From a virus (taxonomy: Duplodnaviria > Caudoviricetes): 64,000 nucleotides of DNA. The stretch is taken from IMG/VR virus record IMGVR_UViG_3300005973_000002. One strand, given 5' to 3'. How positions within the stretch are numbered: position 1 is the stretch's first letter; each line of letters begins with the position of its first letter. A program made the position numbers and the translations under genes. Of this stretch, positions 39,030-56,846 are shown piece after piece. The notes below the pieces were generated by a model. The model was not told the origin of the DNA, made no database searches, and saw only the letters and a program-made list of their open reading frames with translations.

Positions 39030-40205
39030 TCACTTTACAAGTTTTGTAAACAGCTCAGTCTCACGTCGTTCAATTTCTTGTCCGATTTCTCGTCCCTTTA
39101 AACCCTGAGCCATCAACTCTTGTCCACTCACGGATGGTTCGTATTTAATAAATGCATCTACCAAATTCATGTCCGGCTCACCACTAAGTTGAGCAAATTC
39201 CTTCAAGTCCTCAGGAGAAAGTCGTGTCGGCTTCCACAATTTTTTCAAATGATAAGCATTCTCGGGAGAAAGGTTTTGAAAAAGATTAAGAAAAGCAATT
39301 TGCCTAGTTTCAACTACACTGTATTTTAAGTTGTTTAACTTTTGAGACAAAACTTTAGGATTGTTATCTCGTGTAAGAAGAGCAAGTTGCACTGGGATGT
39401 TCTTTGTTTCTTCATACCACGTGTTTAGCTTTAACCCAGGTAAAATCTTTTCCCATAAATTGAAAGAGTCATAAAGACGATGTAAGGCCCTGACGGATTG
39501 GGCACTCTTAATGCTTTTCAAGAATTCATCTCTGATTCTTTCAGGCGACACACCCTCTAAGGAATTATTTGCCCTAATGGCGTCTTCGGTCGGTTTATCA
39601 AGCCCAGCACCCATACGAGCTGCAAATCTAATAGCTCGCAAAATTCTCAGTCTGTCCTCATCAAATCTTTCTGAGGGATCTCCAACAGCTCTAACCACAC
39701 CTTTTTCTAGATCTTCAAGACCGCCTACCAAGTCCACAACTTCTTGACTGTCGATGTCATAAAAAAGTGCGTTAATTGTAAGATCACGACGTTTCACATC
39801 ATTTTCAATAGTAGTAAACTCAACTGCATCGGGTCGTCGACCCACCAAAGACTTAAATTCTCGATATTCTTCTGGAAAAAGTTGTGCGGCTTTATTTTTC
39901 CAATTAGCCGACTCTGTCAACTTGTTTGTGGTTGTTGGGGTAAATGTGATAAAGATACCATCTGTAGGATCACCCTCCACGACACTGATACTATCAGTGC
40001 TGTACTCATCGAAAATTTTATAGTGTTCATCCCACCAATCTTCTTCGGGTGTACCTGCTTCATATCGACATCCGAGTGTATGAGTTTCAATGAACCAGCC
40101 ATTTACAATAACAGTATCACCACAAGTTCTTGCAGTCTTCAATTTAGCCAGAAGGTCATTTCCAGCCTTTTGAACGGTTGCAGGTAAATCTTCATACTTG
40201 GTCAT
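39030..40205 (-). CDS. cca: CCA-adding enzyme (tRNA nucleotidyltransferase), C-terminal piece
   Basis: DVKRRDLTINALFY, RFDEDRLRILRAIRF, VSPERIRDE; probable start ATG 40205 with GGAG 8 nt upstream. Confidence 0.85.
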   Translation of the reverse strand: MTKYEDLPATVQKAGNDLLAKLKTARTCGDTVIVNGWFIETHTLGCRYEAGTPEEDWWDEHYKIFDEYSTDSISVVEGDPTDGIFITFTPTTTNKLTESANWKNKAAQLFPEEYREFKSLVGRRPDAVEFTTIENDVKRRDLTINALFYDIDSQEVVDLVGGLEDLEKGVVRAVGDPSERFDEDRLRILRAIRFAARMGAGLDKPTEDAIRANNSLEGVSPERIRDEFLKSIKSAQSVRALHRLYDSFNLWEKILPGLKLNTWYEETKNIPVQLALLTRDNNPKVLSQKLNNLKYSVVETRQIAFLNLFQNLSPENAYHLKKLWKPTRLSPEDLKEFAQLSGEPDMNLVDAFIKYEPSVSGQELMAQGLKGREIGQEIERRETELFTKLVK

Positions 40206-40920
40206 CAACATATCTCCACATAAAACCACCAGCTTGTTTCCTGTACTTTTTGTTTCTGGCAGCACAGCTAATGTTTCTAATTCCCAAGTCTTTTTGAGCT
40301 TTATCAACACTTTCCCAAATTTGGATCATTTCACCGTCTAAAGTCATTTGCATTACTTTTTTCTTGTTCCAAGCTGATTTTCCTCTACGAGCTTTAGAAA
40401 TCTTCTGCTTTTGTGCTTCTGTACAAGGTTTTCCAAGTCTTCTGGTGTTACCTATAAGTGACTTGGAAATATTTTTCTTGTGTACAGAAGTTAATTTTCG
40501 ACCCTTATGCTGTCTAGCAACTTGTGCTATTTTTTGCTTCGCCTTCTCACTGTGCTTATAACCGTGAGATCCAACCTCTCCTCCAGAAGTGACATTTGTT
40601 AAATCACAACCTTTGTCTTTGAAATATTGAATCCAATACCGCTCTCGTTCTGTCAACAAACTTTCTTCACATTTTTCAATGGCAATTATCCTCAGTTTGG
40701 AGAGCAATCCTTTTCTCTCCAATAATCGCAACCAATTATTCTTATGCGAGTTATTCTTGTTCCTTCGATGCTTATGCTTAGAGAGTCTAACGTTTAGCTT
40801 TGATACAGTTTTACCAACATATCTGACCTCATTAGTCATTGGGCATACGAGCGAGTAGACGCAGCCTTTTCTTCCAGTTTTCTGGCTGTTTTTCTTGGAT
40901 GAATTTAACGAAACTTTCAT
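40192..40920 (-). mobile_element. GIY-YIG homing endonuclease inserted in cca
   Basis: VYSL..RYVGKT, RLSKH, ERYWI, NUMOD-like repeats. Confidence 0.9.
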
Positions 40921-41779
40921 AATCATCTTTTAAATATGAATCTTCACGGAAAGTTGCTATTTCATATTCATTGCCCTCAGGGGTTATAACATTGATAACA
41001 CCAAATGCCTTCCCAACTTCCATTGTTTTGTACTCTGGGAATTTCCTGATTATTTCAAGAATGCGATTAGGATTAGCATCTGTGGCCACATCATAATCCT
41101 TAGGTTCTTTACCCAGCAATGCATCCCGTACTGCTCCACCTACAACGTAAAGTTGATGTCCAGCTTTTGAAAAGATTTGTGATAATCTTTGAATGTCAGC
41201 AGGTATTTTCATATTAAAGGGCTTTCGCACTGATTCAACTAAGAAATTGAAATTTTCATTTAAAATTTCATCAATAAGCCATTTAACGCTTTCGTTTTTA
41301 GCCTCAGTTTCTTGGTTGTCTTTTTTTGGCACCTGATCCAGTGGCGAAGGTTGCTTTTTCTGCAAATATTTTTTAAACTTGCGCTCCCGTTTTTTGCGAG
41401 GTACAGTGTAATGTTTTTTTAACAACTGATCAATGGTAGATTGGTACCAGCGCTTTGCCTGTCCAGCAAGTTTGTTGTCATCTACAAAATGATCAATATA
41501 AAGACGCACTCCGTGCGTATCACCGGATTGACGTGGGTCCATATCTGGATCCATTTTAAGCAAGCCTGACAACTGGTCGAGTTTCTTGGTTGGAGAGTAT
41601 CCTCCCCTGACTGATGACACGGAAAACTTAGCAAGTTTAGTCAAATCATCATGAATTTCGGGAAAATTTTTCTTCATGTGATTAACGTAATCTTGCGATA
41701 GCTCCTCACGGTGTTCGAGCATGACTTCATCAAGCACTTCCTCAATCAAATATACAAGGTCTTTCTTTTTCATGGACAT
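40832..41779 (-). CDS. cca: CCA-adding enzyme, N-terminal catalytic piece with about 180 extra N-terminal residues
   Basis: LYVVGGAVRDALLGKEPKDYDVATDA, VGKAFGV, EIATFR. Confidence 0.88.
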   Translation of the reverse strand: MSMKKKDLVYLIEEVLDEVMLEHREELSQDYVNHMKKNFPEIHDDLTKLAKFSVSSVRGGYSPTKKLDQLSGLLKMDPDMDPRQSGDTHGVRLYIDHFVDDNKLAGQAKRWYQSTIDQLLKKHYTVPRKKRERKFKKYLQKKQPSPLDQVPKKDNQETEAKNESVKWLIDEILNENFNFLVESVRKPFNMKIPADIQRLSQIFSKAGHQLYVVGGAVRDALLGKEPKDYDVATDANPNRILEIIRKFPEYKTMEVGKAFGVINVITPEGNEYEIATFREDSYLKDDYESFVKFIQEKQPENWKKRLRLLARMPND

Positions 41780-56066: not shown

Positions 56067-56846
56067 ATGAAAAAAGAGTTTGCAGGAAATGCGAATAAGG
56101 GTGGTGTTTACCAAATTCGCAACCTAACCAATGATAAAATTTATATTGGTTCTGCTAAGTCGTTTAAAAAACGAGCAAATCAGCATGAAAGTCGTCTAAA
56201 CGCAGGCAAGCATCACAATAAGCATTTGTTAGCAAGTTGGAACAAACATGGAGAAGATGTTTTTCTGTTTGAGATTTTGGAAGTTGTAAACGGTTCCACA
56301 AGAGAGAGAAGAAAGCGAGAACAGTATTTTATTGATCAATACCTCAACAACTGGGAAATATGTTATAATTTGAATAGACATGTAAATCAAAAGGTTGGTC
56401 CCTGGTCCAAAAATCCTGAACTTACAAGATTAAAAATGAGGATGGCCAAACTTGGCAAAGTTAGAGGCCCTCACTCTAAAGAAACAAGAGAAAAAATAGG
56501 AAAAGCAAATTCAAAAAAGAAACGAACCGAAAAGGAAAAAAATCATTTACGTATTGTGATGTCCGGTAGAAAACAACCTGAAAAGGTAAAACAGAAAATT
56601 AGCAAAACAATGAAAGAAAAGGGTTTAAGGCCGCCTTCTTGGAAAAATAAAAAACATTCTATAGAAACGAAACTTAAATTGTCAAAAAAGGTCCATCAAA
56701 TGGATATTAATGATAATCTAATTGCAGAGTTTGTTTCTATTTCAAAAGCTTCACAAAGCACAAAAATTGCTATTTCAAGTATTGTGAAATGCTGTAAAAA
56801 GCAAAGAAAAACAGCTGGTGGGTTTGTTTGGAAATATGCAAATTGA
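56067..56846 (+). CDS. GIY-YIG homing endonuclease
   Basis: GVYQI..IYIGSA, REQYFI, NUMOD-like repeats. Confidence 0.92.
   Translation: MKKEFAGNANKGGVYQIRNLTNDKIYIGSAKSFKKRANQHESRLNAGKHHNKHLLASWNKHGEDVFLFEILEVVNGSTRERRKREQYFIDQYLNNWEICYNLNRHVNQKVGPWSKNPELTRLKMRMAKLGKVRGPHSKETREKIGKANSKKKRTEKEKNHLRIVMSGRKQPEKVKQKISKTMKEKGLRPPSWKNKKHSIETKLKLSKKVHQMDINDNLIAEFVSISKASQSTKIAISSIVKCCKKQRKTAGGFVWKYAN

Follow-up and report, generated by a model that had tools for sequence, protein, structure and literature searches.

A mobile homing-endonuclease cassette as the probable cause of a split CCA-adding enzyme gene in phage DNA

Genes in pieces and the split CCA-adding enzyme

In phage Aeh1, the ribonucleotide reductase locus nrdA-a/mobE/nrdA-b carries an enzyme gene interrupted by an endonuclease gene (Friedrich et al. 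2007; Crona et al. 2011, PMC3045599). Activity there requires the tails that the insertion brought (PMC3045599), and the authors foresaw such tails on other fragmented genes, at a time when there was essentially one case (Crona et al. 2011, PMC3045599). Here, we describe a CCA-adding enzyme gene in pieces at positions 39030-41779 of a 64,000-nucleotide (nt) stretch of Caudoviricetes DNA (IMG/VR record IMGVR_UViG_3300005973_000002), which we call the window. Three minus-strand open reading frames (ORFs) encode, in this order, an N piece of the enzyme, a GIY-YIG endonuclease and a C piece of the enzyme. The original prediction, made from the letters of this DNA, had described these three ORFs with the catalytic and templating halves apart in different frames, and we found its coordinates and motifs to be correct; the precedent it named, a mobE-split nrdA that works as two polypeptides, was likewise borne out (PMC3045599).

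The locus resembles that of Aeh1 in that a free-standing endonuclease splits an enzyme gene within the catalytic domain and so distributes one active site over two pieces, its ORF runs into that of the downstream piece, and insertion-derived C- and N-terminal tails are present that intact homologs do not have. Assembly of separate polypeptides, with neither RNA nor protein splicing, was demonstrated for Aeh1 and is likely for the CCA enzyme. The two cases differ in target, a ribonucleotide reductase versus a CCA-adding enzyme, and in endonuclease, HNH versus GIY-YIG. Moreover, Aeh1 is a single case, whereas tails were found here on more than 50 loci, with a cassette that is scattered over the tree of enzyme cores and appears to home repeatedly. 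In these loci the endonuclease is intact, degenerate or lost, and the C head, an N-terminal addition to the C piece, has acquired cargo domains. That the pieces are active and need their tails was demonstrated in Aeh1 and is predicted here.

Two further systems invite comparison. The T4 topoisomerase gp39/gp60, divided by mobA, and further fragmented genes of T4-like phages (PMC2988022; in PMC3045599) also combine a split enzyme, a mobile endonuclease and tail-like extensions, but the enzyme and the endonuclease family are different, gene 60 uses translational bypassing, and no conserved, repeatedly mobilised tail/head pair has been described for them. The second comparison is with fractured genes that carry split inteins and occur in environmental phage-like DNA (Dassa et al. 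2009, PMC2677866), in which an N part with a peptide, a free-standing endonuclease, and a peptide with a C part follow one another as they do here. Unlike those genes, the window cassette is without nucleophiles, an HN motif or a Hint domain, the heads of the family are mostly too short, and ligation is not expected. Tails of the Aeh1 nrdA/mobE type are already known; the target enzyme, the family-wide conserved mobile cassette, the persistence of the split past endonuclease loss, and the cargo fusions are new. A literature search, which was limited in scope and is no proof that none exists, found no paper on a split CCA-adding enzyme.

We consider it probable that a mobile homing-endonuclease cassette splits the CCA-adding enzyme gene and supplies the tail and head of a two-piece enzyme. 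It would then be the first class II CCA-adding enzyme found in nature as two subunits, with its break in the loop for the C-to-A switch.

Anatomy of the locus and extent of the insert

The features of the locus are as follows (aa, amino acids).

41779..40832, minus strand: N piece of the CCA-adding enzyme, 315 aa (an N-terminal extension of ~195 aa, then the catalytic half of the head domain, then the tail)
40957..40940, minus strand: ATFRED of the N piece
39843..40939, minus strand: whole inserted cassette, 1097 nt for 9 nt (ATCGGCAAA, Ile-Gly-Lys)
40835..40939, minus strand: N tail, 35 aa (SYLKDDYESFVKFIQEKQPENWKKRLRLLARMPND), cassette-encoded, predicted helix-turn-helix
40192..40926, minus strand: GIY-YIG and NUMOD3 homing endonuclease, 244 aa, free-standing; alternative ATG at 40920
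40916..40921, minus strand: TATGAA copy 1, the Tyr-Glu codons of the N tail; holds the second ATG of the endonuclease ORF
40214..40217, minus strand: GGAG Shine-Dalgarno sequence of the C piece, within conserved Trp-Arg codons of the endonuclease C terminus
40205..39030, minus strand: C piece of the CCA-adding enzyme, 391 aa (cargo domain, head helices, then the core from GRRPD at 39842)
40196..40191, minus strand: TATGAA copy 2
39930..40187, minus strand: cargo domain, C-piece residues ~7-92, 85 aa (CGDT..ETHTLGCR..WWDEH..DEY..DG..GDP.DG)
39843..39929, minus strand: C head, C-piece residues ~93-121 (...NWKNKAAQLFPEEYREFKSLV), predicted helical
Intact allele for comparison, contig L009: uninterrupted region around ...TTCCGTGAAGATATCGGCAAAGGTCGT...

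The two outer ORFs encode complementary parts of one enzyme. The N piece matched profile positions 1-77 of the Pfam family PolyA_pol (PF01743, E-value 1e-17), and the C piece matched positions 74-126 of the same family together with PF12627 (PolyA_pol_RNAbd). PHROGs labels both pieces tRNA nucleotidyltransferase and the middle ORF homing endonuclease. The catalytic motifs are divided between the pieces, which are read in different frames: motif A lies in the N piece (GGAVRD, residues 214-219, 41140..41123; DYD, residues 228-230, 41098..41090), and motif B (RRDLT, residues 139-143, with RRD at 139-141; from 39791), motif D (EDRLR, residues 183-187; from 39659) and ERIRDE (from 39542) lie in the C piece. 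An alternative ATG of the C piece at 40211 would give 393 aa. Motif A, motifs B and D, and the RNA-binding neck and body domain are all present, as in class II tRNA nucleotidyltransferases. An intact homolog matched the solved CCA enzymes 6IBP and 1MIV (E-value 1e-35), with poly(A) polymerases scoring nearly as high; the best solved matches are CCA-adding enzymes, and CCA-adding specificity, as against poly(A), CC-only or A-only addition, is putative, the loop that switches from C to A being the broken part.

The rejoined window sequence aligned with these class II enzymes (6IBP, 1MIV) from motif A through the body domain, all catalytic motifs being present. Unlike them, the window enzyme is encoded in two pieces, broken between the EIATFR strand and RRPD, and it has in addition the 195-aa N-terminal extension, the tail, the head and the cargo domain. 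The break site corresponds to segment TFRTESSYSDNRRPD of 6IBP. By this alignment, motif A (catalytic DxD) and motif B (RRD) flank the break, which maps to the flexible-loop region. The flexible loop is the lever for the switch from CTP to ATP (PMC6468291). The N-terminal extension itself (41195-41779, minus strand; ~195 aa) has no Pfam match, is common to intact homologs of 513-549 aa, and carries the conserved motif DPR.S.DTHGV...AG..KRWYQ.

An identical contig across the locus was found in four metagenome runs, and the recurrence of the same arrangement indicates that it is not an assembly artefact. No deletion variant that would point to DNA excision was seen in the contigs of the four runs, which drop rare variants. 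Hypersaline-lake metagenomes hold the C piece on contigs that reach 438 kb; this is a jumbo phage. Near and distant DNA searches of GenBank phages returned a single weak match to the core, in an uncultured 635-kb phage.

Uninterrupted homologs allowed the ends of the insert to be placed. Searching with the C piece, we found intact proteins of 549 aa (P0003/4/5) that are 85% identical over the C core and 77% identical over the N piece, and that run straight through the break as EYEIATFRED-IGK-GRRPDAVEF, without the extra region at the start of the C piece. DNA and protein comparison (L009/P0003) showed that window positions 40939..39843 (1097 nt) stand in place of 9 nt of the intact gene. Because the intact relatives read FRED-IGK-GRRPD, the insert is 1097 nt long and is not the 725-nt endonuclease ORF, as had been proposed. 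Nor is the endonuclease 'bare', as it had been called: the 1.1-kb cassette comprises 35 tail codons, the endonuclease ORF, and the start codon plus 121 new N-terminal codons of the C piece, so that a 35-aa N tail and a 121-aa C head come with it.

The history first proposed for the locus, in which an ancestral loop domain of ~130 aa was later invaded by a bare endonuclease ORF between TATGAA target duplications, is highly improbable in the light of these boundaries. The two TATGAA copies were verified (40921-40916 and 40196-40191). Deleting 725 nt between them does give one open frame in the window (...KDDYE-DLPATVQK), and joining at the two Tyr-Glu codon pairs also opens one frame in L001, an IMG/VR contig with the same three-ORF architecture at ~65-70% aa identity to the window. 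However, the product is not an ancestral gene. None of the intact homologs among the 120 closest matches listed carries the extra region; the break is indeed in the flexible loop, as had been said, but the extra region is not ancestral. The deletion would take away the part of the N tail past DDYE, and this part has homologs in the tails of split loci without an overlapping endonuclease ORF; the cargo domain starts at the N terminus of the C piece and is an independent mobile domain. In another split locus, L005, the same endonuclease 3' end stands before a different cargo. The two Tyr-Glu codon pairs sit in different homologous elements, one in the tail and one in the first helix of the cargo domain, and the endonuclease stop of L001 lies outside TATGAA; for both reasons the repeat is best read, on sequence comparison, as chance.

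The middle ORF matched PF01541 (E-value 3e-8), PF07460 (E-value 1e-6) and phrog_314 (E-value 6e-17), and it retains the GIY (VYSL) and YIG (RYVGKT) motifs and the Arg, Glu and Asn residues. It has both the GIY-YIG domain and the NUMOD-type DNA-binding module of a homing endonuclease; the evidence for sporadic presence and for flank conversion comes from relatives in the cassette family and not from the copy in the window, which we infer to home as well. The endonuclease start overlaps the 3' part of the N tail in another frame. As had been predicted, the C piece has its own GGAG and ATG (40205) inside the endonuclease gene, the GGAG lying at 40217-40214, 8 nt upstream, and the GGAG is kept in L001 and L005. 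The L001 endonuclease is an ortholog with 64% identity.

Proportions of nonsynonymous (pN) and synonymous (pS) differences were obtained by comparing the window with L001, where synonymous sites are saturated.

Extra region, codons 1-100: pN 0.18, pS 0.87
C core: pN 0.21, pS 0.93
Endonuclease: pN 0.23, pS 0.79
Tail/endonuclease overlap: pN 0.16, pS 0.44-0.48

Every part of the cassette and of the enzyme is under purifying selection. The lower pS of the overlap is expected from double coding. Differences in the extra region fall at the three codon positions as 20/16/62, indicating that this region is a translated domain and neither intron RNA nor decaying sequence. With purifying selection on three ORFs, motifs kept and dozens of split relatives, the idea of a CCA enzyme gene in pieces by way of a free-standing GIY-YIG endonuclease is supported.

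Tail, head and cargo domain

Homologs of the N tail, 32-38 aa long, were found on more than 50 other N pieces. They follow the pattern x-Y-...-(D/E)-L-E-x-F-x-x-(Y/F)-(L/I)...(Y/E)-E-x-F/L..., in which the Tyr at position 2 is near-invariant. One tail Phe is invariant in 54 of 54 aligned N pieces, which differ by codon-sized indels. AlphaFold2, run with the 54 N pieces on residues 186-315, gave a predicted local distance difference test (pLDDT) score of 87.8, with a confident catalytic half, and modelled the tail as two helices (residues 287-297 and 302-310; pLDDT 74-86). On the other side of the break, every split C piece carries a homologous head, W..IA..(L/F)FP.E(F/Y).E(F/Y)..L, at its start or directly ahead of GRRPD, 22-25 aa long in most loci, and the AlphaFold2 model from 65 homologs is helical over C-piece residues 94-120 (pLDDT 59-80). 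In charge the family differs from Aeh1: tails are mildly basic (pI 8-9.4), acidity is confined to the long cargo-bearing heads, and short heads are neutral to basic, so that a simple charge-pairing model does not fit. A resemblance of tail and head to the flanks of the break (FVKF..KRLRL versus AVEF..RRDL; PEEYREF versus PEGNEYEIATF), as if they were diverged duplicates, is no more than an impression.

Ahead of the head, C-piece residues 1-92 were modelled as a compact alpha/beta domain with block pLDDT values of 94-98 (overall pLDDT 90.6). The family of this cargo domain has 74 representatives in a library of 1.8 billion proteins. It occurs as stand-alone proteins of 75-137 aa and within giant polyvalent proteins, beside ART-PolyVal (P0154, P0157, P0132) or after cREC_REC (P0126, P0127); neighbours of the family (P0121-P0193) in polyvalent proteins also include Tpt1-like and 2'-5' RNA ligase domains. 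No Pfam family was found for it. Fold searches likewise gave nothing convincing: Foldseek against pdb and afdb_clusters stayed below a TM-score of 0.35, the highest Z from VIA-align wide was 4.9, and searches of the Atlas by shape and by features added no candidate. A MAFFT alignment had suggested that the extra region of the C piece derives from the head domain's N half as a degenerate duplicate; we rejected this, as BLASTP gave an E-value of 0.78 and the region belongs to an independent domain family. The analysis exposes an unnamed, confidently folded 85-aa domain, a companion of ART-PolyVal and cREC modules in giant phage proteins.

Sequence comparison indicates that the cargo domain is not part of the common cassette and that the C piece gained unrelated cargo domains in two lineages. 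In L005 (4001-4576), an ART-PolyVal-like domain (LYHGT...; a weak match, E-value 0.018) occupies the cargo position, and the 30 nt upstream of the C-piece start are homologous to the 3' end of the window-type endonuclease, including the GGAG. A different cargo beside the same endonuclease relic suggests that the head is the spot where conflict or RNA-repair modules fuse to the C piece. Two other loci contain cREC_REC, the cyclic-phosphate processing receiver: L010 (3001-4515), as the N-terminal fusion partner of an intact CCA enzyme, and L006 (2255-2539), as an ORF of its own shortly upstream of the split one. Small ORFs between endonuclease and C piece (L006, L011, L002) were considered as relatives of the cargo and rejected, being unconserved and unrelated.

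The order of parts recalls a fractured gene in which the tail (35 aa) is Int-N, the head (121 aa) is Int-C and protein trans-splicing joins the halves: a gene-N part with a short peptide, a free-standing endonuclease, and a larger peptide with a gene-C part. The sizes also resemble those of atypical split inteins with a short Int-N. However, a Cys or Ser nucleophile is not conserved, the first tail residue being any of S/A/T/R/Q/K/V/G; the junction lacks a preceding His-Asn (V/K/N/T/A stand before GRRPD) and has Gly at +1. At 22-25 aa, the heads of most split loci are too small to form an intein half, the cargo domain is also seen by itself and in polyvalent proteins without exteins, and there is no Hint or intein match in Pfam. 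We regard protein splicing as extremely improbable.

A cryptic self-splicing intron, of group I or another kind, that carries the endonuclease ORF and is spliced out to leave mRNA of about FRED-SLV-GRRPD would account for a precise, sporadic presence and absence at one site, with or without an endonuclease ORF, which is typical of mobile introns. By our own reading, removal of 40939..39852 would follow U, end in G and leave the ancestral loop length, and the shortest cassette, ~370 nt in L002, is intron-sized. Against this, no Rfam match to an intron or a ribozyme at an E-value of 1 or below was found in the window, L001, L002, L005 or L006, nor was a group I core (P3-P9), and the equivalent 3' position of L005 has no preceding G. 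The endonuclease ORF makes up 67% of the insert, and the other 33% is a start codon and a protein domain in frame with the C core; the cargo part of it is under strong purifying selection as protein and belongs to the family of 74 representatives. The tail, for its part, has the invariant Phe and codon-sized indels in 54 N pieces. An intron is very unlikely on this evidence. The absence of intron and intein sequence, already noted in the original prediction, held up to these searches (no Rfam match, no intein motifs, no Hint domain).

Family of split loci and the two-piece enzyme

Further split loci were found in several forms. In L002-4 an N piece of 150 aa and a C piece of 291 aa are separated by ~200 nt, without an endonuclease. 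L005 has an N piece of 212 aa, a truncated endonuclease of the same lineage as that of the window (47% identical, DNA-binding part lost) and a C piece of 461 aa. L006, L007 and L011 have N pieces of 128-150 aa, a different GIY-YIG of 235-236 aa and C pieces of 296-299 aa. A search with a short N piece brought ~55 more N pieces, 125-175 aa long and in part located on contigs of 180-450 kb, so that the tail and head are known from more than 50 split CCA genes of uncultivated phages; a tblastn search with a short N piece against GenBank phages gave matches to the catalytic part only, up to about query residue 97, and thus no sign of a split form among cultured phages, the intactness of the hits not having been checked individually. 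In the split loci the two pieces are always adjacent and co-oriented, and the catalytic motifs, GGxVRD and DxD in the N half and RRD and EDxxR in the C half, show little or no variation.

The nine split C cores are scattered among intact genes on the core tree, where well-supported branches force at least 5 changes. Monophyly of the split genes was rejected (delta log-likelihood 602, p-AU 1.4e-5), for a split group that was picked after the tree had been seen, though it was defined by an independent trait. As tails and heads are homologous and the cores are not monophyletic, the cassette including tail and head moved between CCA genes, or was removed by recombination with intact alleles. A near-identical pair captures this difference: the split L005 and the intact L008 share flanking DNA that is 98-99% identical, and 1309 nt in the former stand in place of 6 nt in the latter. 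About 25 nt just upstream of the junction hold a dense cluster of mostly silent substitutions, the pattern that either co-conversion from a diverged donor or target-site immunity would leave. We infer from these comparisons that the cassette itself moves by homing.

Homing endonuclease genes pass through a cycle of invasion and decay. The endonuclease is intact in the window, L001, L006 and L011, truncated in L005 and missing in L002-4, which fits this cycle, and the split persists once the endonuclease is gone. More than 50 split CCA genes with all stages of the endonuclease life cycle are now available for the idea of Crona et al. that tails neutralise gene fragmentation. An unrelated free-standing GIY-YIG ORF lies directly upstream of the CCA gene both in the split L005 (1594-2493) and in the intact L008 (139-1137). 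Because it stands there in both, the CCA gene neighbourhood seems to draw endonucleases.

Taken together, these results fit the following mechanism. The cassette brings a 35-aa helix-turn-helix tail and a stop codon to the upstream half, the GIY-YIG endonuclease gene, and a Shine-Dalgarno sequence, a start codon, the cargo domain and a helical head to the downstream half. The two halves would be translated separately and would restore the head domain by non-covalent association; with the active site divided between them, nucleotide addition needs both. The tail and head probably pack against each other where the loop is broken and form a small clamp of helices, comparable to the tails of Aeh1 NrdA-a and NrdA-b. 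The endonuclease would cut intact alleles in co-infecting relatives, and repair would copy the whole cassette including tail and head; since these are copied along, invasion would cost the phage little.

Several points weigh against this reading. The evidence for two polypeptides, for their association and for their activity is indirect, consisting of the Shine-Dalgarno sequence and ATG, selection and helix predictions. The runs that match the sequence are DNA runs with no RNA run among them, which leaves splicing unlikely on sequence grounds. Cutting the flexible loop, the lever of the C-to-A switch (PMC6468291), might weaken A addition. Tails and heads are fast-evolving, at 34-38% aa identity, and codon periodicity is weak (99/73/116 for tails and 59/49/64 for heads), which points to modest constraint. 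Given this weak sequence constraint, the role of tail and head is the least secure step of the model, unlike the split itself.

It is also conceivable that the split inactivated the enzyme, the C piece being kept as a tRNA-binding carrier of cargo or the N piece as a packaged protein, and that the phage uses the CCA enzyme of its host. The unrelated cargo domains gained by the C piece in two lineages would suit such a fate, as would a break in the loop needed for the C-to-A switch, and the activity of the pieces is predicted rather than observed. However, dozens of split lineages have kept the catalytic residues of the N and C halves with little or no change, the pieces have stayed adjacent and co-oriented throughout, and pN in the split cores is as low as would be expected of active enzymes. 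We consider inactivation unlikely and continue to favour a functional two-piece enzyme.

The window contains 49 tRNA genes (4327-49868), of which 17 encode CCA and about 26 read N73-C-T-A-A where CCA is expected. T4 tRNA precursors with a 3' UAA are trimmed and then given CCA. With about 26 of 49 tRNA genes lacking an encoded CCA, the enzyme is likely to matter, and it is plausible that a CCA-adding enzyme is useful to a phage with CUA-ended tRNAs. A role in tRNA repair has been proposed for the CCA enzymes of jumbo phages (PMC7824862).

We suggest tentatively, as an idea somewhat short of an even chance, that these cassettes form a distinct class of self-neutralising mobile element, which combines an endonuclease with a portable pair of split-protein adaptors, the helix-turn-helix tail and the helical head, could enter the catalytic core of an important gene with neither intron nor intein, and would leave a working two-piece enzyme behind once the endonuclease has decayed, and that the head serves as a docking point for polyvalent conflict modules (the ETHTLGCR domain, ART-PolyVal). 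If the two-piece enzyme is confirmed, the role of the flexible loop in the C-to-A switch could be tested with natural parts, and the conserved tail and head might be used as small adaptors of natural origin for split proteins.

Elsewhere in the window, a second free-standing GIY-YIG ORF with NUMOD1 (56067-56846, plus strand; 259 aa) lies between two glycosyltransferase genes and ORFs that belong to no family.

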